Positions 7,262 through 38,800 of a stretch of DNA of 64,000 nt are shown one piece after another. Position 1 is the stretch's first letter, and every line of letters starts with the position of its first letter. This stretch comes from Blasia pusilla (lineage: Eukaryota): contig CM114271.1 of assembly GCA_050084515.1 (NCBI GenBank), positions 45,322,001 to 45,386,000 of the forward strand, read 5' to 3'. The notes beneath the pieces are model-generated. The model did not search any database, was not told the origin of the DNA, and was given only the letters and a program-made list of their open reading frames with translations. Both the position numbers and the translations under genes were made by a program.

Positions 7262-8765
7262 TTAGATCTTCAATGATTTCAACATGAAAACACGAATTAT
7301 CAAACATGTCTTATTTATTTGTCCTTTTGGTCCATTCATGTTTCTTAGTAATATGATTGGTGCCCCAACTTCTAAGAACAGAAAATGTGGCAGACTCGAA
7401 GGTAAGCACATATTGAAAAACTCCGTGGGATAACTATGAGACATAACCTTATGAAAAATGGAATCCGTACTAAGATAAACATGCTCCTACACATGCCATA
7501 CGATTGTATCTAAGTTTTCATAAGGTCCATATCATTGTCATGAAGAATTGAAAGCTCTAAGGAAGAAATGGAAAGGCCAACATTTACCACTCCATGGAAT
7601 CGAGACATGACTTTTGTATCGATTGGATCCGAATATCTATTTCTAGGTGTTAAAATAGTAGTATCCCTCAAGAAGTTATGACAAGAAATCGTTCTACATG
7701 AGTCTGATAGATTATATTAATGAGATGGTTGATATTGTTAGTTTTGGATACCTTTTCATCAGGCAACCAAATCATATCTTCCCCCAAATCCTAATGTATA
7801 TGAAGACGACCCTTTCTAACCTCCAACAACCATTTTGCAAATTTTTTTTGATTGGCACGTGAAGGACTTGTGCATAAGCATATACTTCTATTTAGATTTT
7901 TAAAAGTGCAATTTTTGAACTAACTAATGAATACATGTAGAGTATCATTATATAAAAAAATAAAAAATAGAAATATATGATACATTCCGAATTTTTGACT
8001 TTCATATATATATATATATTTGTAAGTTACATCATCCTTACATGAGACCATAAAGCAGATATCTTAAATGTGGCTTGCACAATTTGCAAATAATGACATG
8101 ATAAAAAATGGGAAGGACTTGACGAAAAATCTCCACCAAAAACAATAAGCTTTCCATCCAATCGGACCTCTCTTAAGTCATCAGATACTGATCTTATAAT
8201 ATCTTGGAATCTACAATTGAAAACCTCAAAGACATAACGATTAGTCATAGGTGTTGCCTCCCATACGATATGCTTAGCATTTCAGATGACTTGTGCCTCA
8301 TAATAATTAACTCTTATCCTACAGGATAGAAGGAATGAATCGTTATTTTGGAAGAATTTGAGCTCGTATAAGGAAAAAACCCACAGTTTCAATTTTAGTT
8401 TTACTCTTAGCAAAGGGTTTAAGATTTATTTTTTTTATAAAAATCATTTATGGGTCTAACGGCCTAGGCCCACTTTCTTTTAGTGAATAGAGGCGCGGAT
8501 TTAGCTAAAATGAAAAGTAACTGGAAAAAATCATTGCAAGAGGAAATAGACTTACAAGTGGAACTTTCATCCACATTAATCGGAATCTTGAAGAGAGAAT
8601 GTGCAATACAACCTCCTCCAACAATAAAGTTGCTATCCCATATGAGGTAATAGCCAATGCAATAACTCCTTTACATCTTACACTTTTTTCAGAAAGAGAT
8701 TGTATAGAAATGTTTTCCCTGTTGCACTCGGATCGTTGATAAAAAATAATTTTGCCTAAAAACAA
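7262..8765 (-). pseudogene. Helitron PIF1-family helicase fragments
   Basis: GVIALAITSYGIATLLL (motif Ia), GKLIVFGGDF (motif III), FAKWLLEV..G, YPTEFFN..LP..LEVGAPIILLRNMN. Frameshifts, stops and probable AT-rich introns. Confidence 0.88.
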
Positions 8766-10197
8766 ATGATGAGGTATAAAGTTATTAGATTAGCTATCAT
8801 ATTGATAGTTTACGTGAAGAATATGGAAGAAGTTCATAGAGATAAAAGCTTTCATATCCTTACCAAAGGATGAACATTTTCACTCAACTTTTCAAGTTGC
8901 TCATGCACAAGATCCCAAACATAACGTTGCCCTAGATTCAATAATCCCTCTCCATGCATAGCTTCTTAATATAACTTTTTGTATTATGTACAATCTCATT
9001 GTCCTCAAGATGAGAAGTTGAAATGTTGTCTTCTTGGAAGATGGGTTGGGGCATGACAATCTCTTCCCTTGATCCTCCAAGTGGTAGTGAATATCCAAAA
9101 ATGTATGATTTATGATCTTTGCATTCATAAGAATATCTACAATTCCTATTCTCTATGTACATATATGCAAAGAGCTACCACGTAAGAAGTATGAGAAAAT
9201 AAAAATGTCATGAAAAACTAATTGTTACTTTGGCAAGAAGGAATATGTTTAGGGTTTACTTGAGGTTTGTCATATAAGAGATCCTCAATAAGATGAATTT
9301 GAAACTCATTCCACAATGCAGTCCGCCTATTATTTATGCCAAAATAATGGCAAATAGTTGATAAAACAATCGACCTCCACAAATCTACAAGCTTCTTGCA
9401 ATCAAAGTATAGCTTGCATATCATCCTCTAAGAGTCTTCATTAGATAGCAGCCTCTTTGAAGGTTGGATACTATATTCCATGCATAGTCCTTAAATCTTC
9501 ATATGTGGTTGCACCTCAAATATGATAAAGAAATCACAACCAATGACGTTCATCATCACCCAAGCAAAAAATCTTTCATGATAAAATATTTCAGAAACAA
9601 TACTTAAGGATAAAAAGTGTGGAATATGAGTCTATAAACTCTAAAATGGTTAGGAAAAAATTGATTTATTTAAGATATGTGGTATTTTGGAAGATGTGTA
9701 CCTTGATGAGTGAGATAAGATAACCACAGTCGTGTGGCCCTTGCACATATCGAAACCAAATTTTCTTTTTCCAAGAGTAATCTGAAGGAAACTCAACATA
9801 TCTTAACGGTTGGCTACAAACCATGCCGTGAAATTTTTATTCCTATTTATTTGTAAAATATGTTTCAGGTAGTTCATAATCATTAAAATGTAAAAGTCGT
9901 TAATATGGGAGATGAATAGCCTATCTCACAATACTCGGTTTTTTTTAATGCAAGTTGAACTTGAAAAATTCACCAACATGCTTCTTAAGCTTAAATATAC
10001 CTATGCAAGAAGTAGAAAAAATTAAAAAAATTTATTGGTATGAAAAAGATTTCATCAACATAAAGATTGTTTTCATACGGGCGTAGATAGATGGTTACCT
10101 CACATCTTGATTTTGTGGTGTCTCATCTATAACGTCTGGGACTTGAGTTCTTAGATATCCCAAATATCACAACATCTTATTCCTTATATGGAGATTT

Positions 10198-10950: not shown

Positions 10951-13900
10951 GATTCAAAATAATTGGAAGTCTAGGAAAAGGGAGAAATAAAATTAATTAA
11001 CATGGGTATGTTGAATTTCATCAACCATTTTGAAAAGAACATGACAAATGGAGGAAGGGGCTACATGCCATCAACAACCACTACTCCACTCCAATCCACT
11101 TTATGGAATATAACGACCTCAAGTAGGAAGAAAATCAATGACCTATTTGTGGAACATCTCCGTTACCAAATTAAACCACCAATTAGTTTAAACCCCCCTA
11201 TTGAAACTAAACCCCAAGAACGTAATCCCCCCCCCCCCAAAAGTGATGTGAGCTTACTCTCCCCCCTACCAATTTTCGAGCTTATTCTCCCACTTATTAT
11301 GAATGAGGGAGTAAGGGAGAAAATAATATCATGTTCCTATTTTGTCTCGTTATCTCACTATCTTGTCTTATTATGTACATAGGATTCTCAATGATAGTAT
11401 AGCTTGGATTTGGTATTTTGGGATTTTATGTCTACACTTCAAACTTGGGCAGCAAGAAAATGGTTTTAACGTTGTAAGCATGAGAGCATCTCCACCCTCT
11501 CCACTAAGTGGAGTAAGCTTAGTTCTTTGGACGTGGGAGCAGGGGCCAAAATATCCAGACTACACATCGAAAAAGGCTCTATATATTATCTGCAAAAAGG
11601 AACAATTTGTAGGATTTGGGAGAGGGCCGGTTCGCCATAAATTTTTTTTCTCCCCACTTCCATGGCGCATGTGAAGGATGGCCATAAGCACGGGGCTTGA
11701 ATCTCAGACTTGAATCTCCAACAGTCCAAACAATTTCTTCTTTACACGCTCAATTGGTGGAAGCAGGGTTCAATCCATGTCGAAATCATGCTATGTACGC
11801 TAGTTTGCTTCACTATCTCCTTCATTGAGAAGAAGCCTCTCGTGTACTTCTTGTGGCTCTTTATGACTTGCGTTCAATGGGACCATACATGCGTGCATCC
11901 ACCCTTTTCACTCTTAACATCGAATAGAAATAGATGACTATCACGTTTATTGGGACCTAACCAAGCTAGGGGCAATTACGTTGGATATATTTTGTACCCA
12001 CATAGAGAGAGAAAGAGTAATTTTATTTTATCACTTTAAGATAAAGTGATAAAAATTTATGCAAATTATCATGAAATTAATGTAAATGAGAAATAAATTC
12101 ATTGATTATCCTCATGCATATTCTCACTCTTTCTTCATAAGTATTAACTAAGCATAAATTTATTTCTTTCAAAGCATGTATTTTTTCCAATTTTACACAA
12201 ATTACTAGGATTTTTTCAATAATGATGGGGAAAATATTGATAAGTAGTAAGCTAGAAATATACTTTTATGGTAGAATACTAGTTTAGAAATCCAATTTTA
12301 AGTTGTAAGACCCTAAAAGAAAATATGTTTAAAAAATCATGTATGAATCAATTCAAGTCACCGTATTACTATTCAAGATAGATAAAGAATCTTGAGACTA
12401 GTAGAGGAAAGGAAAAGGAGGAACAATATAGACTACGAGACCATAAGCCGTTCAATACACAAAATATGGGAACAAGGCGCATGAGAAACGACCCAAATAG
12501 GGAATAACCAAGATAGGTTGGGGTCACCATAAAACTTATCTTAAGCCCATCAAAAGTTTTATGAAGTCCAACCAGCATTTAGGCATAATGAGTTGGAAAA
12601 GACCTTAAGTATTTGGAGTTGGTGTAGAGGGTTTCCATATTTCCATTTTTGACATGTTTTAAGTTGCGACCAAGCATATTCGTGATGCACCTCAAAAGTT
12701 TAGTTACATCCCTCCAAAAAAGGATGAGCAATAGAGGGAGAATGATCAAGGATTCCTAGAGGAACCAATTTAATGGGAAATTGTAGCAAGAGAGAACGTC
12801 TCAAAATTTCTATTTTCCTTAACCTACTAGATTATTTTCTATATGAGAAGATAATGTAATTTTTTACAGAATTTTTTCTATTATTTCGCAGATTTCAATG
12901 CATGAGCACTGAAATTGAAGGAAAAAAATTGGACATAATTTATTGGAACTTTTGGCCAAAAAATGTGATGGGGAGGAATTTTCAAAAAGATCTACCAACA
13001 AAATTAGCTAGAATCTTTGTAGAAAAATTATCACTTGAAATATTTACAAAATAGAAGAAAATAAATTCTAAGAAATTCTAATTCTCTTTTGATGGTGAGG
13101 ATTACATATTTTGTCTATTATCTGGTTTTCCAATTGTCCATTTTTTCTTTATCGTTGTCTTTGTCCATCCATCTGCCAACGTGCATTAAACATGCATAAA
13201 ATTACTAGAAATTTTCTATTTTTCATGCTTATTTTTTGAATTCAATTGAAATTTTTTTCTGCATTCATGAACTTTTAATCTCATATGATTTTCTCTCCAT
13301 CATCCTCTCATAAAATTGATGTTAAAATTTTCAATGAATTGAACAAGTTCTATATACAATCCTCTTAGTGTATTATCTTATATTTTATTTAATATTTGGA
13401 TTCAAGAAGCACTCAATATATTTCCTTTATCTCATGACTTTACTAATAATTTTGACTATACTCTTATAATATAACTTTAATGTTTATAAGTTATGATTCA
13501 CATGGTATCATGTATGATGTAATATAAGATACATGAATATTTTTATGACTTGTGTTTAGGATGCATAAAAACATACAAGTTCTAGGGACTTATCCGTTTT
13601 TTATGCAATCATGCTTATGACTTGTAATTAATGATATCGACTAAGAGACAAAATTGAGTATAAAATTCAACGAAGTAAAAACTTTGGATTCTCCCATCTC
13701 ATCAAGTTAAGAAGAAAATGGATTAAGTATGCCATAAACCAAGAAGGCAAGAGAATTCCATGGAATGTCATCTATCAATTATTATATTAGCATATAAGAT
13801 TAATTCCATTATTGGCTTCCTTAGTGAGGTACGTACCTTCTTCATATGATTTTGCATATAATATCTCAATCCTGAAATCTCTATACATTTAAGGAAGTAA

Positions 13901-16599: not shown

Positions 16600-18700
16600 T
16601 GAATGAACTTCAAATTCCTTCATGTTGATTCTTGCAAGGGTGACACTCTACACAATGCCTCTTCCTTCCCATTTTTGTTGTCAAAGCCTAACATTCCTAA
16701 CTTGCTAAGGAGGTTTGTTGTTTAAGAGATCAGAGTTGCATGCATAAGCTCCAAACCTTCCACTTACTTGTCTACTCTAGCTGAAGTTCATTCGGTTCGA
16801 TGGACTTGGTCCTCCCAACAGTCTAAATGCATCGCATCTTCCGATGGCATCCCCAAATGGTTCATCCATAGTTGGACAATTCTCTTGTCCATCAAAAACC
16901 GCCTTTGGAACTTCTCCCCCGACCCCTACATCCGAAGAGAAACGGAAAGTATGCATGAAAAAGTGCATTATGTAAGGCAATTTCACGCCGACTTGTTATT
17001 AGGCATAGGGTGCCTTCTAATACGCTATAGCAGCCACTGTCCGGCTGAGTATTAGCCATCGCATGTGAATTTCCACCATGATGGAAATTCACATGGTGGA
17101 AACCTCATGGTCGGATGGCTGTATGCATATGAATGTCAACATCCTCTTCATTCACAAAATCCTCACACGTAGGATAAGAAAATTCTTCATCGCCTTATTC
17201 CGATGTGTGTGAGTGGCCATGTCTTCAATCCAGAATGCCTCTATAACAATGTTGATCACACCGAATTGCAAGAAGGGGAGCTCGAACATCCCAAGATGGT
17301 ATAAGTTCATCACTCTTCACGACGGGTATGCTTGTTTTGTAGATCCTCTTGATGAAGTCATTGGTCTAGATTAATTGGATGAACAAGTTTCTCTGAGTCC
17401 ATTTCCGTGATCACATCTGAAGCCATTACATGTGTATAAGGCCAACGAGTATCTTGGAACTCAAGGCATGAGCAAGTGCACTTAGGTGCAATCTAACATG
17501 AAATTGATGTCTAGTAGTTGTTGAAGTCACAAGTGCATTTTTTTGCATTTGAGGCAAGTACTTCAAAACTCCGATAATTGGCTTTATTATTTCAAACACG
17601 AATAAGTGGGTAACTAATGAGGTTGTTCAACTTCCTTTCCCCTTGATCTTTGCGCCAAATTTGCATATTCAAAGCCTATAGCATGTCTTCCTCCCTACAC
17701 AATGCTTTGCTCTATAATTCAGCGAGCACAAAAACCGAGTGCAAACTCAAATTCATCAAAGTTTCAGAATGCTCGCTCAATTGTATCCGCTCTACATGTC
17801 TCATAACTACACTTAATGACCCCAATATTGTTAATCGGTCGTACTTTCTTTACTTCAAAATAACAGTCGAGGAAACTATTTCTCTAGCTTTCATTCTATC
17901 GACACAATATCCACGGTGGAGAATACTTTTCCGACTATATCTACAAAATTTTAAGTCAATTCCCCATTCGCTCAACAATTTATATGCCGTGGGGCTCCAT
18001 TCAGTCGACCATTTATCCATTGTGGGGGCTAATTGCATACAATAGGTAGGGCGCCCAAGCAAATAGACCTCGTAGATGCAATCTTACATTGTGTCGACCA
18101 TATATCTGCCATAATGGCTATTTCTAGACTTGTTAAGGCACATCGCCTACGAAGATAGAAATTTTGCAAGTAGCGAATGACCTTTATAGACTTAGTCCTC
18201 CACCAAAATAAAGGTTTCCTACATTCTCTTAGTCAAGCATCCACCACGGCACATACTTGTGCACCATGCTTTTGACCCTTACCACCTACTAACGCAATCC
18301 CTTTAGCTGTAACCCGCACAAGGGTTCACTTTCTTCCAAATTGAGGCCTTCTTGATTGGGATCATTCTTGGATGTGGACGATCTCAAGAACTCGAAAGCA
18401 GCCCAAGACTCTCTTGATAATGGGTTTCGTTCATAAGACCCACACTTCTCCTCTTAGCGTTATTACCAAATAATCCCTTGTCATCCATAGGACAATGATG
18501 TCTACTCCCGTCTAGACAATCATCAACCATAGATGAGAGTAGAGGATCTATGGGTAGCTTAATACTATTCATTCTACAAACCAAGAAGTGGTCTCGAAAC
18601 AATGAACAAGTGCCATACATTATCATGTTTAGGTCAGCATGACTCTTGAAGATCACGTGCCAAGCAACCGGACGACCTACCACCAAGTCGTAGTAATCCT
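16600..18700 (-). pseudogene. MuDR/MULE transposase remnant with SWIM zinc finger
   Basis: Manual translation: SWIM-like KCTCSCLEFQDTRWP(Y)THVMA at about 17483-17421; MULE-domain-like GIALVGGKG..QVCAVVD..LFWW and IAIMAD...PTYCMQ upstream. Confidence 0.7.
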
Positions 18701-22896: not shown

Positions 22897-23024
22897 TGTC
22901 GTCCGCATACACATCGTTACACAACAAACATCGATGTCGACAAACATACACACAAACACGCACGATCCCATGCTAAGTCATGGTATCCAAATAACGAGAC
23001 AAGAAATACCAAAATATCTCCAAT
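22897..23024 (-). repeat. Copy 1 terminal repeat Y (128 bp)
   Basis: Direct repeat of 23532-23659, 25601-25728 and 26245-26376. Confidence 0.92.
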
Positions 23025-23529
23025 TAAAATAGGATCCAATCTCTCTCAACACCATAACTCTCAAATGTGTGCACTCTCACATGTCTCTTTCAATGTCAAA
23101 TCAAACCCACTTCTCCGAATGAGAGGCTTTACACTCACAAGACAAGCAAGACCATAGCTCTTCCGCCTCATGTCAAGAAGTTCAACAAAGATAGAATGAG
23201 CTCTCAAGCTCTCTCTCTCTCCTTGAGGTACACCCCCTTCCCTCTCCCAAGCTCTCTTCTCGATAATCTATGCTCGCAGGTCACCTCCTTGGCTCTTGAC
23301 CTGCTGTAGCGGGTCAAGGGCCACTTCCCAAAGTAGAAAGTCAACTCTACCAAATATAACTTACCCAAAATACTTCGTTTCGGCTCCAAATGATCCAAAA
23401 CAAAGGGAAAATCTGCTCTCAGATTTCCCGGGACCTCAACAACTCATCCTCGACCTCTTGAGTCTGTCCTCCCCTACTCGAGAAGGCGCTCTATCTGATC
23501 TCTCCGATCTATCCTAGAAATTCGTGAAA
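23025..23529 (-). repeat. Copy 1 LTR-like repeat X (about 505 bp)
   Basis: Homologous to 25728-26242 and 34979-35492. Confidence 0.92.
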
Positions 23530-23531
23530 AT

Positions 23532-23659
23532 TATCGTGCGCATACTCATCTTGACACAACATACATCGTTGTCGACAAACATACACACAAATACGCACGA
23601 TCCCATGCTAACTCATGGCATCCCAAAAACGAGACAAGAAGTACCAAAATATCTCCAAT
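23532..23659 (-). repeat. Copy 1 internal repeat Y'
   Basis: Second copy of Y, separated from X by 2 nt (AT). Confidence 0.9.
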
Positions 23660-23830
23660 CGCCACCATAGTTGGTGGTTAGGTCCCTCTAAATCCAGATA
23701 GCCATCTATCCCTACCTACTATGACATACATCTCTCGCACGCTAAGAGCAAAAAGGCAGGGTGCTCATGTGGCCCCATCGTTAGTCGCCTTCTTGTCATC
23801 CATGTCACAAACACAAGTCGGAATCTACAA

Positions 23831-25070
23831 CTACCTACCCTTTGTACATGTGGGACACATCCATCGTCCCTCAAGAACCGTAGTGAGAGGTATCGTTAGA
23901 CATGCCATATGCCACCCTCTCGAACACCCATCATAGACTAGCATAATGGATGCACCACATGCGGAACCACACAACATACATCGCAATCTTATAGGAACTA
24001 CTGCTAAGCTCTGATCAATTGTACCGTCAATGTTAGGAAGGTGACATGGTGCACAGTTACGCATATGGTTCTTCCAAACCATACCATCGCGTCGCTCTAA
24101 TAAGAGAACACCTGAAGGCAAAATCTCATGCACTCTCATGCGCTCTGCAATCACATACAACGTGGTGGGTGCCGTCTGCTGCAAGTAGACATAGTCTCCT
24201 TGATGAAACCTCCGGATAGTAGCTCGATAATCACCTCCTCCAATAAACGCATACCTCAATGTATCCCGATGCTGCGTAATCGCCAAGTTCTCAAACGCCA
24301 TGGGCATCACTCTCGAAATAACTCAGCCCTCTGAGAACATGCTCGCATCCATATATCAAGGTCATCTAGGTTCAACACCTCACCAACATCTCGACGAATG
24401 GCCGTAGATTAATCTGGCTCTCGGCCATAAAGCAGCAAGCATGGTGAGAAAGATGCTAAGGATGCTTGCCTGCTGAATCTGTATCCCATCGCCAAGCACC
24501 GCAACTCAAGGTCCTAGGTGACCTCTCTGCAAGCCATACTTGCGTAATCCTCTCGTCATCGTTTGCACAACCCTCTCTGCTAGTCCATCCGCCTCAAGAT
24601 GATCTTCGGAAGTGGTGCGGTGGTCGATCAGTGCCTGATCACATAAGGCGTGAAACTCCTCGCAAAACTCTGTACCGTGGTTTGTCAACACCTTAGCTGG
24701 TATACCGTAATGACTTAGCACTCAATCTAGGAAGGCATACGCTACACCCTCACTTGCTTTGTCAAGCAATGCAACCAACTCTATCCACTTAGAGAAGTGC
24801 TCGACCATCCCCAATACATAACGACTATGGCGCTCCATCAAAAGCAAAGGTCCTTCAAAATCCAAAACCCATCTATAACCTAAACGATGCTCGGACTCGA
24901 TCACACACCATGCACCTGGCAACAAACTTTTGAACGTCAGTCTGCATGCCTTGCCACCAATATTGTATTTGGAGCAAGTTGTACGTCCGCTTCACTCTGA
25001 AATGACCCAACTCCTCGTGGGCATGACACACCAAGCGTGCTCTTTGCGAAGTATGAGGCACTACACGCAC
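23831..25070 (-). pseudogene. Copy 1 integrase (HHCC + DDE core) with C-terminal PHD finger
   Basis: HAHEELGH..YWWQGM..CMVC; RWVLDF; VLTNHGTEF; ADGLAER; CMLC..(Y)DGC.RGWHMACL..GRWMCPTC. Confidence 0.92.
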
Positions 25071-25600
25071 TTTTCCATCCTCCCAAACTCAAAATGTATG
25101 TATCCCCTCCCATCGGAATCGTCTGGCTTGTTGTAAGATCCAATCCCCCTCTCTAGCACCCATTGTGCTCACAACGTTGCTACTATGCAAGTAATCCAAG
25201 ACCACTCCATCGTCGTGAATGTCTCGGCCACCTGTTGTTTCCTCAATAGCCTATGGATCTAAGGACTCTCCATCAGACCTCGCTATCAAAGTCTCAGCAA
25301 TGTTGCTCTCCATAGCCAACAAGCCCAAATAGGCTGACGCGTGCCATCGTGACACCAACTCCTCATCACTCTTACCATGCCAACGAGCTCCAATCGCATC
25401 TCGCTAACTCGGGATTAAGTCTCAAACCATCTGCATCCTGGTTGAGCATCCCATGTCTATGCACCACCTGGAAGTCATTCTCGTCCAACAAAAGAGCCCA
25501 CCTCGCAAGCTTCCCTATAAGCTTGTCGGACTCCATGAACCACTTAAGTGACTGATGATCACTAATCATGGTAAAAGGATTGCCGAATAAATAACATATG

Positions 25601-25728
25601 TGTTGTGCGCATACACATCATTATAAAACATGCATCACTATCACCGAACACACACACAAACACGCAAGATCCCATGCTAACTCATGGGATCCAAACAACG
25701 AGACAAGAAGTACCAAAATATCTCCAAT
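25601..25728 (-). repeat. Copy 2 terminal repeat Y
   Basis: TGTTGTGCGCATACAC...AAAATATCTCCAAT, repeated at 26245-26376. Confidence 0.93.
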
Positions 25729-26242
25729 AAAGTAAGATCCAATCTCTCTCTACACCATCTCACACCATACTTCTCAAAGGTATGGACTCTCTCTCATATC
25801 AAACCAAACCCACTCTCCTAATGAGAGGCTTGGGTTACACTCACAAGGCAAGAGACCATAGCTCCTCCGCCTTATGCCAAGAGGTTCAACAAACAGAGAA
25901 TGAGCTCTCAAGCTCTCTCTCCTTGAGGTATACCCCTCCCTTCTCCCAAGCTCTCTCCATGGTAACCTATTCTCCCAAGTCACCTCCTCGGCTTTTGACC
26001 TGATGTAGGAGGTCAAGGGACACTTACCAAAAAATAGAAAGTTGATAATATGCTCAAAATAGTACTTACCTAAAATAGTAAGTTTCTCAATATGGCTCCA
26101 AATGAGCCGAAACGAAGGGGAAACCTACTCTCTGAGGTTTCCCGAGGCCTCAATAGGTCATCCTCGACCTACTGAGCTTGTCCTCCACTACTCACGAAGG
26201 CGCTCTACTAGATCTCACCGATCTATCCTAAAAAATATGACA
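25728..26242 (-). repeat. Copy 2 3' LTR-like repeat X
   Basis: TAAAGTAAGATCC...TATGACA; about 16 differences from 34979-35492 over the first ~210 bp (manual count). Confidence 0.95.
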
Positions 26243-26244
26243 GT

Positions 26245-26376
26245 TGTCGTGCGCATACACATCGCTACACAACATATACATATCGTTGTCACCGAACACA
26301 CACACAAACACACACGATCCCATGCTAACTCATGGCATCCAAAAAACGAGACAAGAAGCACCAAAATATCTCTAAT
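26245..26376 (-). repeat. Copy 2 internal repeat Y'
   Basis: TGTCGTGCGCATACAC...ATCTCTAAT, separated from X by GT; preceded on the sense strand by a PPT-like TAGGGGAGCG (26386-26377). Confidence 0.92.
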
Positions 26377-26559
26377 CGCTCCCCTAGTTGATGGTTAAGT
26401 CCCTCTAACTCAAGATAGCCATATATCCCTACCTACCATGACATACATCTCTCGGACGCTAAGAGCAAGAAGGTCGGGTGCTCATGTGGCCCCATTATTA
26501 GTCGCCTTCTTGTCATCCATGTCACAGACACAAGTCGGAATGCAGAACTACCTACTCTA

Positions 26560-26700
26560 TGTACATCTGGGACACATCCATCGTCCCTGAGGAACCCTAG
26601 TGACAGGTGGCGTCAAACATGCCATATGCGATCCTCTCGAACACCCATCACAGATTAGCATCGTGGCCGCACCACAGGCAGAACCACACAACATACAACG
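26560..26700 (-). pseudogene. PHD finger (C4HC3) at the integrase C-terminus, copy 2
   Basis: Manual translation RCMLCGSACGAATMLICDGCSRGSHMACLTPPVTRVPQGRWMCPRCT. Confidence 0.92.
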
Positions 26701-26759
26701 CAAGCCTGCAGGAACTATTGCTAAGCTCGGATCTTATGTACCATCAATGTCAGGAAGGT

Positions 26760-27860
26760 GACATGGCGCCCAGTTACGCACATGGTCCTTTCATACCATA
26801 CCATCGCGTTCCTCCAGCAAGAGAACACCGGATGGCAAAACGTCACGCACTCTCAAGATAGTGCGCCCTGCCGTCATATCCAACGTGGTCGGTGGCGTCT
26901 GTTGCAAGTAGACATAATCTCCTTGATGAAACCTCCAAATAGTTGGTCGATAACCACCACCCCAAATAGTCGCATACCTCAACGTATCCCAATGTTGCGC
27001 AATCACCAAATTCTCGAATGCCATGGGCATCACTCTTCGAAAGAACTCAGCCCTCTGAGAACATGCTCGCATCCATACATCAGGGTCATCAAGGTCCAGC
27101 ACCTTACCAGCATCTCGATGAATGGCCGCAGGTAAATCTGGCTCTTGGCCATAAAGTAGAAAGTACGGTGGAAAAGATGCTAAGGATGCCTTCCTGCTTA
27201 ATCTGTATCCCATCGCCAACCATGGCAATTGGAGGTCCCAATCTCCTAGTGGACCTATCTACAAGCCATACTTGCGTAAACCCCTCTTCACCGTCTGCAC
27301 AACTCTATCCGCTAATCCATCCGCCTCAGGATGATCTCGCAAAGTCATGCGGTGGTAGATCAGCGCCTGATCACACAAGGCCTAAAACTCACCGCGAAAC
27401 TCGGTACCTTGGTCTGTCAACACCTCAGCCGATGCGCCATAATGACTCAACACTCTATCAAGGAAGCCATAAGATACTCCCTCACTCGCTTTGTTAGGCA
27501 ATGCAACCAACTCAATCCACGTCGAGAAGTGCTCGACCATCACCAACACATAACGACTGTGACGCTCCGTCAAAGGCAAAGGTCGTGCCAAATCCAAACT
27601 CCATCTATACCCTAAGCCCATGATTGGTAATGGATGCAACTGTGGAGTCGGAGCATTGAATGATGCTCGCACCCGATCACATACCATGCACCTGACAACA
27701 AACTGTTGAACGTCAGTGTGCATGCCTCGCCATCAATATTGAATCCGGAGCAAGCTGTACGTCCGCTTCACCCCAAAGTGACCCAACTCCTCGTGGGCAT
27801 GCTACACTAGTCGTGCTCTCTGCAAAGGATGCGGCACTACGCGTACTTTGCCATCCTTCC
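26760..27860 (-). pseudogene. Copy 2 integrase
   Basis: CMVCDRVR..LHPLPI..RWSLDL..VMVEHFS..VLTDQGTEFRGEF; PPYFLLYGQEP. Confidence 0.95.
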
Positions 27861-28149: not shown

Positions 28150-28573
28150 GCATGGATTACGACTCAACCCATCTACATCTTGGTTGAGCATCCCAAGTCT
28201 ATGTACCACCTAAAAATCATACTCCTGCAACAACAGAGCCCATCTCGCAAGCTTCCCTGTAAGCTTGTCGGACTCCATCAACCACTTTAGTGGTTGATGA
28301 TGAGTGATGATGGTAAAGGGGTTGACGAATAAGTAACACCTGAAATGCGCGACAGCCCACATCGCAGCCAAGCACTCACCCTCATACGAGCTGTACTTCA
28401 CCTATGTTGTTTGAGCGGCTAGCGGAAGCCACCACCAACTCTCTACCCTCATCATCATGCTGAGTGAGTACCGCTTCAAGCCCCAACATGCTCCAATCTG
28501 TGTGCAACTGGAAAGGACGCCCCCCGATCGGTCTCCTCAAGATGGGCGAGGACGTCAACATGTCCTTGAGCAA
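28150..28573 (-). pseudogene. Copy 2 RNase H (Ty3/gypsy type)
   Basis: FQLHTDWS..AVLTQ..VVASASRS; YSSYEGECLAAMWAVAHFRCYL..HQPLKWL. Confidence 0.93.
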
Positions 28574-28599
28574 CTAAAATGCTTGCTCCTGCTTATCCT

Positions 28600-29410
28600 T
28601 GCCACTCGTGATCCATCTTGGTCAACAAGGTTAGTGGCTTCGCAATCGAATCTGAATCCCTTGAGGTATCGCCGATAGAAGTTCGCCAATCCCATGAATG
28701 CGCGAACACGACTCACATCTATAGGGCGTGGAATGCGTGAGATAGCCTCTACCTTCGTCTGTTGAACACCAAAGCCCCTTGGGTATATCGTATGATCCAA
28801 GTACTCAATCTAGTCGTAGAAGAACTTGCACTTGCCTGGATGTAGCTTCAACCCATGTAATTGCAATCGTCGAAACACCTCCTCTAGATGTCACTTATGC
28901 TCCTCAATCGTGGCGCTAAAGACTACGATGTCATCAATATAACACCTAGCAAAATCCAGACCACCCAAGATCCTATCCATGACCCTCTGAAACTTAGCCG
29001 GGGCGTTCTTTAACCCAAATAGTAAGAACCGCCACAAGTACAAACAATCCTTCCCGTGAGGATCGATGCCCCAAAATGCCGTCCTCTGCGTATCCTCCAA
29101 TTTGATAGGCAGCTGATGGTATCCTGCTCTCCAAATCCAATGAACTAAAGACCTTTGCATGACCAATCACATCAAAGATCTCCTCAGGGGTGGGCATGGC
29201 ATACCTATCGGACTTTTTCTGCCGATTGATAGGTCGGTAATCCCCACACATCCGCCTATCCGTCTAGTTGCCATGCACATCCTTCTTGGCGGGCATGACA
29301 GTGGCAGATGCATACTCCCCATACGACATCTCCACTTGTCTTGCTCCGACAAGTCCTGGCTCCTACTCTGAATCAGAGCCCTCTCCATATCACTCTACCT
29401 GTAGGGTCGT
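28600..29410 (-). pseudogene. Copy 2 reverse transcriptase
   Basis: CGDYRPIN; FSSLDL; GYHQ; FGLKNAPAKFQRVMD; YIDD. Confidence 0.96.
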
Positions 29411-29899
29411 CGGAAGATCGGCGTATCACTTGACAACTCAATGCGGATCCCCGGTCCCTTCAGCGTACCCAGATCCTCCATGCTAAACGCAAAGTAGCTC
29501 TTATAACTCCTGAGGAACTGATGTATTCGGCGCCGCTCTCCTCCTATCAACTTAGGGCCCATATCTGGCTCCAAAGTCTCTATTGTCACTACAGTAGGAC
29601 TCTCCGGCAAGGGTATCGATGGTTGCTATGGTGCAACCCTGTCTCAAACAACAACACTCGGCCGCTCTCCTGTAGCAAAGTGCAAACTTTGATCTCCTCC
29701 ACATGCAGTGCCCAAAACCACGCTCCATGTTGTGGCAATCATCTCTTGGCGTACGTGCAAAACATCCCAAGAAGTCCAAGGGTGTCTCTCCCGATCTCCC
29801 CTGGTGTGTAGATCTCCTCGGGTCTCGCCCCCAGCCATTGCCTCCACCATCTTGGTAGGTATGGGGCTACCAACGCAACCGTTGTGATCTGTCGCAATC

Positions 29900-30540
29900 T
29901 CATTCGGCACTCCTCAGCCACTTCCAAGCTAAGGATCCATATCAAGCAGTTCAGGTCCATCGCCTCACCCAAAACATGGCATTGTGATGCCTCTGACACT
30001 GACGGTACTGCCGTCACTCTTGTGGAAAATCCCATCGCTCGCTCTCTCTCGTCGGCATTGGGCTCCACCAACCGCTGAACCTGGTCATCCCAAACCAAGC
30101 CAAGACCGGCCTCCCTGTATGCATAGGAAGCGGGAAAACTCACAAACATGGGCAAGGCTACCCGTGGCGTGCCTACCTTGTTGACCACAGTCAACGGTGG
30201 TCGATCATCGTGCCTCATTGCCTGTGATCGACGACCTGGATCCAGAATGGAATCCACTAACAAATGGGAGGGGCGCTCCACTCTCGCATATGCCCTGCGT
30301 AACACCCCATGGGACACCAAGTTGGTCCACCATAAACTCTGGTATCCCTGTACTGCGGACGCAGACAATAAGTCGGGAAAACGTAGGCGTAACTGTGCCA
30401 CATGTCGTAGTGAGATGCGCCTCGTAACATCATCACTCTCCATACACAAGTACTTCTGTACTCGCACTCCTGTCTGCAAAACAGCAACTAACCCGGTGTT
30501 AATCCCTCCAAAGAGATCTAACACTCGAATACCCTCATCC
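29900..30540 (-). pseudogene. Copy 2 C5 cytosine DNA methyltransferase domain (DNMT3-like), internally deleted
   Basis: Motif I IRVLDLFGGINTG, motif II YLCMESD, LWWTNL, motif IX EPNADERERAMGF, motif X HVLGEAMD. Motifs IV-VIII absent. Confidence 0.88.
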
Positions 30541-30889
30541 GGGATACACCATACAATGGCTGAGGTATCCAAGGTTGTCATCGTAGGACTGCCTGCTACC
30601 TCGGGTTCCTCAGACCCATCACGCTTTGGTGCAAACGCCTTGCTCCACGCGGTCTGCACGTGCTCATCTGCCAGTCGTCAAAGCTCCTCAGTCGAGCCCC
30701 ACTGCGGCACCCCTCCTCCATGGAATGATGCGGCTACCTAACACTCCTCTCCATAGAAATGTCAAGAACGGGAGTATCCTCTGCATGGATATGTCCCTCA
30801 ATCAAATCACTAGGCCAAGTGATGGCACTGCTAAATGCTGCTAAGGTCGCCATCTCTCCTGGCCGTTGCTCGATCACTGCACCTGTGAA

Positions 30890-33286: not shown

Positions 33287-34963
33287 AGAAGGAGGTCAAG
33301 GTGGTCTCTCACGTAGAGACCCTCAAAACCTTGCGCCACTCCCCGTAAAACCTCTAGAGCTACTCTCGGGTTCACCACCTCGCCTCTCAAAGTCCCGAAC
33401 GGACGCCATGATGACCCTCGTGCCCCTCTCACTCAATCACTCTCAACCTCACAACTAATCCCTCAATCACTCATCCCAAACATGCGGCACTTGATCTACA
33501 CTCTCCCTCCTCGAGACGTGTAACGTGCGGCAACAAGCGGCGTGGCGCGGCAAATCGACCAAGCTATCATCTCATCGACAACCTACCCTCAACTCTGGAC
33601 ATCCCACACAGGTCTATGTCCCTTAAACCACATACATAAATGATGCTCTCAACATCCACACAACCCAATATCCCCAAATAAACTACCCAAATCCTAGAAT
33701 CCCTCACGCGTGCAGGGTAAAGGACCAGAATGGGTAACCTAAACACATGTTGATGTCGCTCCTCAGCAACTGCAAATCTCGACCCCAACTCGGTCGTGGA
33801 GAAAACTACTCCAATCAGCAAGTCATACTCCTCCCGTATCGACATTGCTCAAAACTCCTCAATAGACAGTGTGGTTCCAGCGGAACGGTGCAGCGTTGCA
33901 GGCGGCACGGAACGGTTACGGACGGCACGGCCCTTGATGGTGGGATGCAACACTCGACGGCATACCCTCCACAATCAACAAAAAACCCACACACTGCTCC
34001 ACAATGATGAAGCGGCTTCGCGATCGAGAAGGTGCAGTGCAGCCACGAGCGGCACGGCGTGTTGCGGCTACGGGCGTCACGGCACAGTACTCGATCGTCA
34101 TCGAGCGGCTACTAATCACAACATAGCGGCATGAAATCAAAACTCAAACACCATAATTGGAGTTCATGTGCCATCATAGGTTGATGATGAACTGCAATGA
34201 TGGTGGCGGCCAAAACAAAATACGTGGTGGCGACGCAAATCAGAGAATCAACGAATGTCGTGGAAGACCCGCCACTCCGTAACGACGGCAATGGCAACCA
34301 AAGGGTGGACAACGGATGGTGGACCGTTGACGGTTGACCATTGATGGTGATGGCCAACTGGTGAGGTTGATGGTTGACCATTGATGGTGACTATGACGGC
34401 GACTGCCGCCGCCGGTGTGGCGGTTGCTTTAGGGTTTGAACAATTTAACCCTAAAAATCGCCTAGCAATGGAAATTTTGCAAGATTGACCATAACGTTTT
34501 GCTCGCAACTCCAAATTGCACATTGTTTGTTGCACAGCGTGCACAGCTTCACGATCTACAAGAATATCAAAAAATATTCAAAATCAAACATTATAGTAAA
34601 AATTGACAGGGACTGTCGTAAAGCCCAATGTCTCTTTCTCCTACACAAAATTTGGCAGCGCTTCCCCGCTGATTTCCCCAACGAAAATGTAAAACATGTA
34701 AAAACACAAATCAGAAAGCTACATGGTGCTCCCGAGAGCACTGGCATGGGGTAACCCATTATCAATCTCTATCAAAGATTGGGCAGCGCTTCCGCGCGCC
34801 ATTTTTTCACAAGAAAAATCGGCAAATACAAAGAATAATCAAAGCAGCCCTTGCTCTGGTGAGCACTCCCATGAGCCGGTGAACGGGGAACACGGTACCC
34901 AACCTGAAAAAATAGCGAGTGACCAACGAGCTTCCCCATGAAGCTCTCTCACTCTGTCATTCT

Positions 34964-34978
34964 CTCATTCTCTATTTG
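34964..34978 (-). promoter_or_regulatory. Candidate self-priming primer-binding site
   Basis: 34964-34979 is 15/16 complementary to 35140-35155 inside X and abuts the end of X; no TGG-type tRNA PBS is present. Confidence 0.65.
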
Positions 34979-35492
34979 TAAAGTAAGATCCAATCTCTCT
35001 CTACACCATCTCACACCATAACTCTCAAAGGTGTGCACTCTCTCTCATGTCAAACCAAACCCACTCTCCTCATAAGAGGCTTGGGTTACAATCACAAGGC
35101 AAGGAACCATAGTTCCGCCGCTTTATGCCAAGAAGTTCAACAAAGAGAGAATGAGCTCTCAAGCTCTCTCTCCTTGAGATATACCCCTCCCCTCTCCCAA
35201 GCTCTCTCCATGGTAACCTATTCTCCCAAGTCACCTCCTTGGCTCTTGACCTGATGTAAGAGGTCAAGGGCCACTTACCAAAAATATAAAGTCGATCATA
35301 TACTCAAAATGGTACTTACCTAAAATAGTAAGTTCCTCAATATGACTCCAAATGAACCGAAACGAAGGGGAAACCTGTTCTCTTAGGTTTCCTCGGGCCT
35401 CAGCAGGTCATCCTTGACCTAATGAGCTTGTCCTCCACTACTCACAAAGGCGTTCTACTAGATCTCACCAATCTACCCTAAAAGACATGACA
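34979..35492 (-). repeat. Copy 2 5' LTR-like repeat X (no adjacent Y)
   Basis: Homologous to 25728-26242; sense strand begins TGTCATG; TATA-like GGGTATATC about 28 nt upstream of Inr-like CTCATTC. Confidence 0.95.
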
Positions 35493-37494
35493 TCTGAAAT
35501 ATGCGAAAGCCCACACCGTCAGCCAAACAGTCACCCTCATACGAGCTATACTTCGCCTCTGCAGCGTTGTTCAAGCGACAAGCGTAAGCCACCACAAACT
35601 CTCTACCATCATCATCTCTTGCTCATCCCCTCAGTGCCACTCCTTATCCATCTTGGTCAGCAAGGTTAGCGGCTTCGCAATCGAATCGAAACCCTTGACG
35701 TACCGTCGATAGAAGTTTGCTAATCCCATGAATGCACAATCTTGACTCACATTTGTAGGGCGGGGAATGCGTGAAAAGCCTCTACCTTCGTCCTTTGCAA
35801 ACCAAGGCCTCCTAGGTATATCGAATGTGGTCGTAGAAGAACTTGCACTTGCCCAAATATAGCTTCAGCCCATGTAAGTGCAATCGTCAAAACACCTCCT
35901 CTAGATGTCGCTCATGTTCCTCAACCGTGGCGCTAAAGACTACGATGTCATAAATATAACACCTAGCAAAATCCAGACCTGCGAAGAACCTATCCACGAC
36001 CCTCTGAAACTCATCCGGGGCATTCTTTAACCCGAATAGTAAGAACCGTCACTCGTACAAACAATCCTTCCTGTGCGGATCGATATCCCAAAATGCCGTC
36101 TTCTGCATGTCCTCCAATCTGATAGGCAGCTGATGGTATCTGGCTTGCAAATCCAATGAATTGAAGACCTTTACATGCCCAATCGCATCAAAAATCTCCT
36201 CACGGGTGGGCATGGCATACCTATGGGACTTTTTCTGCCGATTGATAGGTCGATAATCTCCACACATCCACATATCCGTCCAGTTGCCATGCACATCCTT
36301 CTTGGCGAACATGACAGTGGCAGATGCATACTCTCCATGCAACATCTCCACTAGTCCTCCTCCAACCAACTCCTTGCTCCTACTCTGAATCAGAGCCCTC
36401 TCCATGTCACTATACTTGTAGGATCGTCAAAAGATCGGCGTGTCACTCGACAACTCAATGCGGATCCTTGGACCCTTCAACGTACATAAATCATGCATAC
36501 TAAATGCAAAACAACTCCTATAACTCCTCAGCAATTGATGTATCCAGTGTCACTCTCCTCCTGTCAACTCCGGGCCATCTCTAGCTCCCAAGTCTCCATC
36601 GTGACTATGGTAGGACTCACCGGCGCGGCTGTAGATGGTTGTTATGGTGCAACCCCATCTCGGATAACCAAACTCCATTGCTCCCCTGCAGCCAATTACA
36701 AATCGGATCTCTCTGTGCAGTACCCAAAACCATGCTCAATGTTGTGGCTACCATCTCCTGGCGTGCCTGCAAAACATCCCAAAAAGTCCAAGGGTGTCTC
36801 TCATTATCATCCCTGGTGTGTCGATCTCCTCGGGTCTTGCCCCCATCCATTGCCTCAACCGTCTCGGTAGGCATGGGGCTCACCAATGCAACAGCTATGA
36901 TCTGACATTGCTCAGCTACTCGTAAGCTAAAAATCCATGTCAAGAAATGCAGGTCCATCTCCTGACCCAAGACATGACATCCTGATAGTGACGGTATTGT
37001 CGTCACTCCTATGGGGAATCCCATGGCTCGCTCTCCCTCATCCGCATTGGGCTCCACCAACCCTTGTACCTGATCATCCCAAACCAAGCAAGGTCTGGCC
37101 TCATTGAATGCATAGGAAGCACAAATACTCACCAATGTGGGAAAGGTTTCCCGTGGCATGCCAATCCTCTTGACCATAGCCAACGGCGGTCGATCATCGT
37201 GCCTCACTGCTTGTGATCGACAACCCGGATCCAATATGGAATCCACCAACAACTAGGAGGGGCGCTCCACTCGCGCATATGCCCTCCATAACACCTCATG
37301 TGGGACCAAGTTGGTCCATCAAAGACACAAGCGGTGTGCTCTATAACCTACACTCGCCGCATCTAACAACATTGTCGTGCTTATCCATGCGCGCACCTGA
37401 TGTGCACTTTTCACCACGTGGGACCTCGAATCGCCCAAAACCGGCACATTCTCGAGAATGTATGCTGGAGGACGAGACTGATGCTCCTGTATGT
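35493..37494 (-). mobile_element. Ty3/gypsy element copy 1, 5'-truncated part (RNase H, RT, DNMT)
   Basis: RT CGDYRPIN..FNSLDLQARYHQ (36049-36405); collinear with copy 2 at 28340-30330. Confidence 0.92.
36890..37494 (-). pseudogene. Copy 1 DNMT3-like domain, motifs VI-X
   Basis: Manual translation PPAYILENVP (ENV at 37453-37445), LLDAASVGYRAHRLCL*WTNL, EPNADEGERAMGFP, HVLGQEMD. Confidence 0.9.
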
Positions 37495-38800
37495 AAGCAC
37501 AAATTTCTAATGTAATCCTATTGATGTCTCAATTCTGCACCCAAAAGATAATGTGGTAGTTTAAGCTGCCTCGTACCTAATGACATAGTCTAGAATACGT
37601 CCTAATAATTGAAGTCCAGAGAATATATATGGAATGAAGAAGGTATGCAGTTTTGTGTGAAAAAATTGTGCACACTTAGAAGGCCCATCACGCCATGTGA
37701 ATTCTGGATTGAATCTCTGGAGGATGGCTTCTACATGTGCTATCTCATGCCATCGTGTTGCGGAGACCTCATCAGTTGTGAGAGTTAGAAAAAAGTGAGG
37801 CATACCCCATTTATGGACCATTTCTTTTAGGTCTTTTAAGTGTCTCCTATGCCAACATGGGCTACCAGGTATTTGTGGACTAAGAGAGTGTTTAGACAAA
37901 TGGTGGTACAAGTCTTCCTCACACAGATGGGGTTTTTCCTTCCTTAGTCTGTCTAGGTCCTTATTTACAATGAAGGAATGAGATGTTGAACACACCGATA
38001 TCGAATTTTGTAACTGGTACATGACTAGAATGTGCAGTTTGTATAAGGAAAATGGGCCGAATATTTGTTTTGATGTGAGCGGCATATAATCCGAGAATGA
38101 GCCAACACCATGAAAGTATCCTTTTAAGTAAGGGAAAAGAAACAGGAATATCCCAATTTCTATAGTAAGTCGTTTATTAGTAGATGCACATACGGAATCA
38201 GTAGGGAAGTGCTCTCTACTATTGGCTTCTTTTTTTAATACTATACAACCATTGTCAAAGATGTCTGAGGATTTTTTTGATCTAGTTGGGAGACAATATG
38301 TAATATAATGTAAAATATTCAACTCTGGCTGGTATGGGTTAAATTACATGCTATTTGTTACCTGGCCCTTTTCTTGGGCAGCTTTGAGTATAGATGTTAC
38401 AACTCAGCCAGAAGAACAACTTATCCAGCAGATGGTTTAGGTAATTCAAGCAGACACTTGTAGTCCTTATACAGATCATTGACAACGAGGTTTGTGACCA
38501 AGACTTGTTTGATGCTATCTATTATGGACTCAATTTTTTCCCTTGAAGCTGATTCAAGGTTCCAAGAAATAAGAGGGGAATCTAACAGTGATGTAGGGTT
38601 GAAAAACCCCCTATGGAAACCATTGAATTTGCTAACAATACCAATTTTGGAGTCCACGATCGAGAGAAGCTATAATACGAAGAGGATTGGACGATAAAAT
38701 GCTCCATATATAAGTAGGTGTCATGTACACATTCAAGCCAGTCCGAGGTTGGTCTGTTGTACAGAGATCGCATGCATAGAATTCTCCTCCTGGGGGATTA
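37495..38800 (-). pseudogene. Helitron2/Helentron-type Rep N-terminal remnant (no helicase retained)
   Basis: FLFLFPY, IPGSPCWH..LKDLKEMV..GMPHFFLTLTTDE..W.E (motif 1), YVIRYE../GSLNYHIIFW (motif 2, frameshifted). Confidence 0.82.

Follow-up and report, generated by a model that had tools for sequence, protein, structure and literature searches.

We examined how reverse transcription could be started in a retrotransposon of Blasia pusilla, located in a 64,000-nucleotide stretch of contig CM114271.1 (GenBank assembly GCA_050084515.1, positions 45,322,001 to 45,386,000) that is referred to here as the window. This carrier element, of the Ty3/gypsy type, is degraded and extends over 9.9 kb of the minus strand (35492-25601); it begins with a direct repeat, X, and ends with a second copy of X flanked on both sides by a shorter repeat of about 130 nt, D1. 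Judging from its sequence, we assign a probability of about 0.75 to a Tf1-like self-priming mechanism, in which the 5' end of the element's own transcript would pair with 16 bases starting at the last base of the 5' X. A Tf1-like reading had been put forward in an earlier note on this DNA; it is supported by comparison with related families, although the note had missed that the repeats follow a DIRS-like layout rather than one of plain long terminal repeats (LTRs).

Candidate primer motif and primer-binding site

The candidate primer motif, CTCATTCTCTCTTTGT, lies at 35155-35140, and the stretch CAAATAGAGAATGAG at 34978-34964 directly follows X, both read on the minus strand. When the preceding A at 34979 is counted, which is the last base of X and the point where the pairing starts, the resulting 16-mer (ACAAATAGAGAATGAG, 34979-34964) is the reverse complement of the upstream motif at 15 of 16 positions, as the earlier note had recorded. 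The first T (35183) of a TATA-like box, GGGTATATC at 35186-35178, stands 28 nt before 35155, which agrees with the spacing given originally; the corresponding distances in relatives are 31 and 26 nt. The second copy of X (26242-25728) carries a G at the odd position (CTCATTCTCTGTTTGT), which gives a G.U pair opposite the T of the window copy and bears out the G.U-compatible base noted earlier. In the third copy of X, which belongs to an older element of the same family termed H, the motif reads CTCATTCTATCTTTGT. The predicted R-U5 region between the two motifs folds well below its shuffles (z = -4.0).

We then assessed how often such a match would be encountered by chance. A match of 15/16 at any of 11 offsets around the end of X was obtained in 0 of 5000 dinucleotide shuffles of X, and likewise in 0 of 5000 shuffles of the leader. 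Across the whole window, a match of this type within the preceding 514 nt was found at 71 of 63,470 positions per strand. Reads from one DNA run and three RNA runs (X20, X21 and X22) of the same species label were aligned at 85% likeness. At 34974, the A of the plus strand is read as C in 540 of 602 DNA reads (271/303 plus 269/299) and in all 70 RNA reads. Because this majority of DNA reads carries the matching base, most family copies match at 16/16 positions. Among the 40 read differences listed (347 more exist), no majority difference fell inside 35140-35155.

The earlier suggestion that the site stands in place of a tRNA primer-binding site (PBS) also agrees with what we found: by the criterion of pairing with a tRNA CCA end alone, the first TGG after the repeat end occurs at +39 in the window and at +43 in a distant relative, L070. 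ARAGORN detected 0 tRNA genes in the window and 0 in 50 metagenome loci, and a scan against Rfam gave just two sub-threshold chance matches.

Several further features were observed around the two motifs. In all three families compared below, the predicted start falls inside a palindrome whose left arm, just upstream of the primer motif, resembles the PBS. This arm is clearer in the relatives, where it reads CTCAAAGAAC-ATA-GTTCTTTGAG in the most common family and CTTGACTTGACA..TGTCAAGTCAAG in L070 (about 8827-8870). Six DNA reads of run X17 (3 + 3) connect one motif to the other across opposite strands, at 34975/35145 and 34980/35140; these junctions share up to 16 letters and amount to about 0.1% of depth, and they may be fold-back artefacts at an inverted repeat or rare snap-back copies. 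Just past the PBS, at 34953, an 8-nt stretch that forms one unit of the doubled GAGAATGA is missing in 78 of 677 DNA reads.

Covariation of the paired motifs in related families

A DNA pattern of the primer region returned 0 matches in metagenome_contigs. Relatives were found through alignment of the methyltransferase open reading frame (ORF) of the element, which gave 80 metagenome loci, most of them in one family. In this common family the repeat corresponding to X, here called A, is about 340 bp long and runs from TGTCATGACC to CATTTTCA; it is followed by a leader starting with CTCAAAGAAC and then by the coding region. On the 3' side, the polypurine tract CTAGGGGGGCGA precedes B, the counterpart of D1, which spans 115 bp from GTTGTGG to CGCACGACA. 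Further removed is the relative L070, which has two long open frames, one for a protease and a C5 methylase (PF00145 in ORF1, 1.8e-13) and one for reverse transcriptase (RT), RNase H, H2C2, rve and a PHD finger. The best solved relative of its pol product is the Ty3 Gag-Pol structure (7q5b, E = 4.4e-98).

The test by covariation that the earlier note had proposed came out in favor of pairing, with three families carrying differing yet complementary pairs of motifs. In the common family, AGTTCTTTGAGT stands 31 nt after the first T of TATAAA and pairs with ACTCAAAGAACT, which starts at the last A of the repeat. Both motifs were located in 15 of 20 5' ends, with one of the 15 mislocated, and the 15 copies had a mean of 10.0/12 positions paired in register compared to 3.5-6.2 when one motif was slid by 1-4 nt. 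Three loci (L003, L014 and L056) were paired at 12/12 positions. In the diverged locus L047, both sides had changed in two compensatory pairs (T-A to C-G and G-C to A-T), alongside one wobble and one mismatch. In L070, GACATTCTTGTCAAGT lies 26 nt after TATAAT and matches ACTTGACAAGAATGTC at 16/16 positions, and 1 of 3000 shuffles gave 15/16. In all three families the pairing starts with the final base of the repeat. When the promoter regions were aligned, the TATA boxes shared columns, as did the three primer motifs, which stand just ahead of a TTGA[AG]C-like block common to the families. Minimum-energy folds from the predicted start to just past the PBS had the 5' end closed on the PBS in 6/6 relatives, for stretches whose ends were picked by the analyst, a choice that favors a closing stem.

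Split direct repeats in the window element and its relatives

Neither the window element nor 8 metagenome loci are bounded by two identical LTRs. The repeats are split direct repeats of the DIRS type, in the order A1...B1-A2-B2: X stands alone at the 5' end, D1-X-D1 forms the 3' end, and the older copy H ends likewise. The X repeat of the earlier note makes up only part of the terminal repeat system, with D1 flanking its 3' copies. The joint between the end of X and the start of D1 is exact in both 3' copies (CTTACTTTA/TTGGAG in the inserted copy and TTTTAA/TTGGAG in H), and D1 begins straight after the polypurine tract (..GGGGAGCGA). This tract is kept as CTAGGGGGGCGA before B in 14 of the 15 metagenome loci listed. 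The joint between the end of D1 and the start of X forms the palindrome GACA-AC-TGTC in the window element; across the window and the metagenome loci the internal form is GACA-nn-TGTC, with nn being GC, AC, AT, GT or TC. The inserted ends are TG..CA, at the start of X and the end of D1, with a 4-bp target duplication. The element has these permuted repeats although it encodes a DDE integrase.

We found both kinds of joins in the DNA reads. From X, 742 reads pass at 34979 into the D1-start consensus (agreement 0.73) and about 600 run into the leader. At 35492, 861 reads enter X with the D1-end consensus at an agreement of 0.5, about half of them being estimated to come from varied flanks. Because the junction reads show both joins, the X...D1-X-D1 arrangement is regarded as a property of the family and not as an accident of this locus. 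The alternatives of D1 alone, X plus D1 or D1-X-D1 as the LTR were rejected: the PBS follows X and the polypurine tract precedes D1, 0 of 17 5' ends carry D1 upstream, and junction reads from X to D1 and from X to the leader are about equally common.

The common family was characterized by the same layout. Its B is followed by flanking sequence in 14 informative loci and by nn-A-B and then flank in 8 loci (L009, L015, L029, L032, L043, L044, L058 and L080), while B was found before A in 0 of 17 5' ends with upstream sequence. Its ends are TG...CA with a short imperfect inverted repeat, and its 4-bp duplications read CATA/CATA in L032 and L044 and TACA/TACA in L031, the copies being 3/4 alike elsewhere. 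We considered B-only 3' ends as a separate primary form of insertion and dropped this option, as L043 (B-A-B, 7604-8171) and L047 (B only, 13368-13482) are one locus, with downstream flanks 98.9% identical over 4.3 kb and element bodies only 91% identical. The B-only form is therefore at least sometimes a deletion derivative, formed by deletion between the two copies of B.

Two other contigs bear on the layout. L070 (1-9317) runs in the order leader, ORFs, polypurine tract, B, A, PBS and leader, a circular permutation that comes either from a repeat collapsed in assembly or from a circular or tandem form. In L074, from 14747 onward, insertion into an RNase H region recurs: the inserted element is of the moss family, and the element that hosts it ends in its own B-A-B (16681-17333) with a 157-nt B preceded by a run of 11 G. 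By this 3' end, the host represents a third family with the same layout.

Proposed course of reverse transcription

If the element primes itself, RNA polymerase II would begin transcription at 35155 or just after it, which places the start about 28-31 nt past the TATA-like box. The transcript would loop back over an R-U5 region of about 160 nt so that its first 12-16 nt pair with 34979-34964. As in Tf1, the RNA would then be cut by RT/RNase H where the duplex ends on its 3' side, near 35141/35140, and synthesis from the freed 3'-OH would proceed through U5 and R. Once transferred to the 3' copy of X, the minus strand would be completed, and the polypurine tract at 26387-26376 would prime the plus strand at the first base of D1. 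With the PBS at the end of X and the polypurine tract before D1, the cDNA ends set by reverse transcription would be the start of D1 and the end of X. The earlier note had already placed the minus-strand cDNA end at the end of X, and this placement is retained because the pairing begins there and the exact joint between X and D1, with D1 right after the polypurine tract, marks the same end. A primer located further downstream (first TGG at +39 or +43) would make U5 longer than the joint shows. As each cycle would copy the primer into a new PBS, the two motifs would be expected to co-evolve, as is seen.

Weighing of the evidence and alternative explanations

A number of observations weigh against self-priming. 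The RNA data give it no positive support: no pile-up of starts or ends was detected inside X in the three RNA-seq runs, and RNA depth is no lower upstream of 35155 than downstream of it, which would be expected if the whole 3' copy of X is transcribed. The minimum-energy fold of the decayed window copy pairs the 5' motif with an internal GA run (35058-35040) and not with the PBS, although as a two-strand duplex the PBS pairing is the stronger one (-18.5 compared to -16.3 kcal/mol). The two motifs are rich in CT/GA. In the 12-nt family, single copies are weakly significant, with 29-58 of 3000 shuffles giving 11/12; L024, L029 and L063 are decayed (7-9/12 paired), and 5 of 20 5' ends are without a locatable motif. 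For L070, the repeat end was placed by analogy and the contig order may be an assembly artefact. The palindrome, of which the primer motif is the right arm and the PBS-like stretch the left, could also have another role, and priming by an internal or half tRNA keeps a small probability.

Closing stems are common in retroelement leaders, and the inverted repeat might be a long-range RNA stem closing off R-U5, with a role in packaging, dimerisation or translation control and with some other primer in use. The strong structure of R-U5 fits such a stem, and covariation proves pairing and not priming. However, the 3' strand of the stem starts exactly at the U5 end given by the joint between X and D1, where a primer must sit, its 5' strand is located where the TATA-directed transcript should begin, and there is no other candidate PBS between the U5 end and the first TGG at +39; we consider this explanation unlikely. 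A reading in which the palindrome at 35176-35140 is a promoter or integrase-related signal at the DNA level, and its copy next to X a by-product of template switching, draws on the PBS-like left arm found just upstream of the primer motif in all three families and on the few DNA reads (3 + 3) that join 34980 to 35140 on opposite strands. Such a by-product would not stay in register with the end of U5 or covary in three families, and reads at about 0.1% of depth fit fold-back artefacts of the library, which makes this reading very improbable.

Priming by a cellular RNA through a non-canonical match, whether a tRNA half, an internal tRNA segment or another small RNA, would have a precedent in the half-tRNA priming reported for plant Ty1/copia lineages (PMC6317226). 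While tRNAs are conserved, the site is wholly different between the three related families; it matches the element's own repeat in every one of them, and no TGG lies beside the repeat end, so that a cellular primer appears very improbable. A chance meeting of CT-rich and GA-rich low-complexity stretches without function might be suspected given that X and the leader are GA-rich and that the CT motif also pairs with the internal GA run. This is scarcely credible: the match was reached in 0/5000 shuffles, most family copies keep it and even perfect it, and two other families have, at the corresponding position, a pairing of the same kind spelled with different letters. Self-priming is the reading that we retain.

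Inserted ends and predicted ends of reverse transcription

The predicted ends of reverse transcription, at the start of D1 and the end of X, differ from the inserted ends, at the start of X and the end of D1. Within each element the inserted ends come together as a palindrome (GACAGCTGTC in the relatives; GACA-GC-TGTC there and GACA-AC-TGTC here), which resembles a circle junction open to cleavage by an integrase; the predicted ends of reverse transcription meet in the exact joint. As the simplest account, we tentatively propose, at less than even odds, that the linear cDNA is not itself integrated. Its ends would first be joined, in a two-LTR circle or by end-to-end read-through, an event kept on record as the exact joint between the end of X and the start of D1, and the integrase would then open the palindrome between the end of D1 and the start of X. 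Insertions with the permuted order X...D1-X-D1, TG..CA ends and 4-bp duplications would be the outcome. A point against this account is that the mirror form A-B-A-coding-B was never seen (0/17), which the account leaves unexplained.

Abundance, transcription and read variants

The family is very abundant: in roughly 1% of a run, X reaches a depth of about 5000 and the leader one of about 850. RNA reads run almost exclusively in one direction, consistent with sense transcripts from a stranded library; in run X20, for example, the bin 35115-35155 has a sense depth of 185 compared to 9 reads. The ratio of RNA to DNA depth is roughly flat (0.03-0.10) across RNase H, X and the leader. Two variants were noted within X. 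A 63-nt skip at 35211-35275 occurs in 14 RNA reads (3, 5 and 6 in X20, X21 and X22) and in no DNA read; as it ends in GT..CC on the sense strand it is no standard intron, and it may be an expressed deletion variant. At 35047, 867 DNA reads diverge, and their consensus matches the longer version present in the older copy (23090-23060); this indel divides the family into subfamilies.

The carrier element and its surroundings

Searches for repeats and self-comparison, together with reading of the joints, showed that the carrier is inserted in the RNase H region of H. It codes for gag, a decayed C5-methyltransferase, RT, RNase H, a DDE integrase and a PHD finger. Pfam was run on 63 stop-to-stop ORFs of the window (12 + 51) and found RVT_1, RT_RNaseH, Integrase_H2C2, rve and a C-terminal PHD finger; the order of protease, RT, RNase H and integrase, with an integrase of the DDE type, is that of Ty3/gypsy (Metaviridae). 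No chromodomain and no tyrosine recombinase (PF00589) was matched among these 63 ORFs, and PF00589 was not matched in L070 either. The PHD finger is also present in H (23834-24322, 1.8e-07) and in L070 (8053-8190, 2.6e-10), and it may target integration to marked chromatin.

A 312-aa ORF before RT had no Pfam match itself; it has 103 relatives, many with PF00145 (C5 cytosine methylase), and the relatives for which the source gives a name are from liverworts and mosses. Alignment with these relatives shows that the methyltransferase of the window has lost its catalytic core. This decayed ORF lies between protease and RT, and its counterpart in the older copy is at 36620-37252. The right copy of the target duplication reads CATA (25600-25597), 3/4 alike with the left copy CAGA. 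An alternative placement of the borders, with ATGT as the duplication and an element running CATG..ACAT, was dropped, since the ends of the relatives are TGTCATG...CACGACA; the duplication is CAGA/CATA. Directly upstream of the truncated older copy, a Helitron_like_N ORF (9.4e-14) was noted at 37564-38343 on the minus strand. Coordinates are collected in Table 1.

Table 1. Features of the retrotransposon and of the older copy that hosts it, in window coordinates
Feature	Position	Strand	Remarks
Target duplication, left copy CAGA	35493..35496	-	In RNase H region of H; frame compared with uninterrupted copy at 28340
X1 (A1), 5' repeat	34979..35492	-	Starts TGTCATG, ends CTTACTTTA; 91% identical to 26242-25728 and 76% to 23519-23025; high-copy family
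TATA-like box GGGTATATC	35178..35186	-	Aligned with TATAAA/TATAAT of relatives; putative function
PBS-like left arm CAAGGAGAGAGAGCTTGAGAG	35156..35176	-	Local palindrome with primer motif, as read from the letters
Candidate self-primer CTCATTCTCTCTTTGT	35140..35155	-	Predicted first 12-16 nt of transcript
Predicted R-U5, 177 nt	34979..35155	-	Predicted from primer motif and X end
Candidate self-priming PBS ACAAATAGAGAATGAG	34964..34979	-	G instead of T at 34974 in 540/602 DNA reads
Decayed C5 cytosine methyltransferase-like ORF	29742..30677	-	Motif I kept, catalytic core deleted; atlas lead 0.89
RT and RNase H fragments	28213..29166	-	RVT_1 8.9e-11; RT_RNaseH 1.5e-19; RT_RNaseH_2 1.9e-11
DDE integrase core and end of H2C2 zinc finger	27385..27732	-	rve 1.7e-08; Integrase_H2C2 0.0024
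PHD finger, C-terminal end of pol	26560..26733	-	PHD 9.1e-12; stands where a chromodomain would
Polypurine tract CTAGGGGAGCGA	26376..26387	-	G-rich, directly before first D1
D1a (B1)	26245..26375	-	Ends GCGCACGACA; then spacer AC (26244-26243)
X2 (A2), 3' copy of X	25728..26242	-	From repeat comparison
D1b (B2), right end of element	25601..25727	-	Ends ..GCGCACAACA
Older host copy H, 5' part	35497..37321	-	Methyltransferase-like, RT, start of RNase H; truncated upstream; 82% identical to 30332-28600
Older host copy H, 3' part	22897..25596	-	RNase H, integrase, PHD, D1-X-D1 (23658-22897); 80% identical to inserted copy

Comparison with known systems

To our knowledge, self-priming is a rare way of starting reverse transcription, and it has been worked out experimentally only in the fission-yeast element Tf1. 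It is said to have been established there by Lin and Levin in 1997 and by Atwood-Moore in 2006, with the former reportedly giving a duplex of 11 nt. Similar to Tf1 of Schizosaccharomyces pombe and the Tf1/sushi elements, the window element has the pol order of Ty3/gypsy and a candidate PBS right after U5 that is complementary to the predicted start of its own transcript, without a tRNA-type PBS. It differs from Tf1 in that the duplex would span 12-16 nt (compared to the reported 11 nt) and overlap the last base of U5, and that a PBS-like left arm stands before the primer. A PHD finger takes the place of the chromodomain, the target duplication is 4 bp, and the repeats are permuted as X...D1-X-D1.

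Self-priming has been predicted in two other groups. For the Tcn1 chromoviruses of mosses and club-mosses, the supplement of PMC6317226 (MOESM5) gives such a prediction for 83% of 1500 elements; a chromodomain and a 5-bp duplication are each listed for 100%, with a mean length of 6.4 kb and plain LTRs (REXdb; PMC6317226). The window element resembles Tcn1 in being of the Ty3/gypsy type, in its close relatives in non-seed plants and in its predicted self-primer. It is unlike Tcn1 in its PHD finger, 4-bp duplication, length of 8.7-9.9 kb, added methyltransferase and split repeats, and by the features tested here (chromodomain, duplication and repeats) its sequence would not place it among Tcn1 members. 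For TAR (Ty1/copia; Houba, Osr-1), the same supplement gives predicted self-priming for 89% of 203 elements (PMC6317226, MOESM5). Here too the element's own 5' end is predicted as primer in land plants, but TAR belongs to another superfamily, with integrase before RT, and has plain LTRs.

A matching build was found in KnitGypsy-Dnmt3 of Klebsormidium nitens. The legend of Fig. 4c in PMC5890265 calls its repeat structure "the same as that of a DIRS retrotransposon", and the element likewise combines Gypsy domains, a C5 methyltransferase in the polyprotein and DIRS-like repeats, the methyltransferase of the window being decayed. A streptophyte Gypsy-DNMT3 is also named in a 2026 preprint (10.64898/2026.05.21.726589). 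Wording on priming or polypurine tracts (PBS, primer binding, self-prim, polypurine) is absent from the main text of PMC5890265. DIRS, PAT and Ngaro share the layout of A1, coding region, B1, A2 and B2, but they use a tyrosine recombinase without target duplication, unlike the DDE integrase (rve, H2C2) and 4-bp duplication observed here. Our literature search returned no account of self-priming in this methyltransferase-bearing Gypsy lineage or in connection with bryophyte names. For split direct repeats it gave papers on tyrosine-recombinase and Penelope-like elements and reviews, and among the 15 titles listed there was no integrase-bearing Gypsy element with such repeats. The candidate priming site would thus be new for the lineage, and the odd repeats of the lineage had already been noted in Klebsormidium.

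Implications for the lineage

These elements would represent a third plant lineage with predicted self-priming, after Tcn1 and TAR, and a structurally odd one with close relatives in bryophytes; the support consists of covariation in three families together with an independent marker of the U5 end. Annotators could use the result as a rule to locate the PBS and the true ends in elements that are mis-called by standard LTR finders. With the ends made by reverse transcription fixed for the lineage, the inserted ends are shown to be different ones, and the origin of DIRS-like repeats in an element that encodes an integrase becomes a directly testable question. If the joining of cDNA ends is true, a DDE integrase would be using a site that resembles a circle junction, thereby converging on the repeat layout of tyrosine-recombinase elements. 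The arrangement would then bring a side benefit, in that X would be followed by the polyadenylation region (D1) at the 3' end alone.

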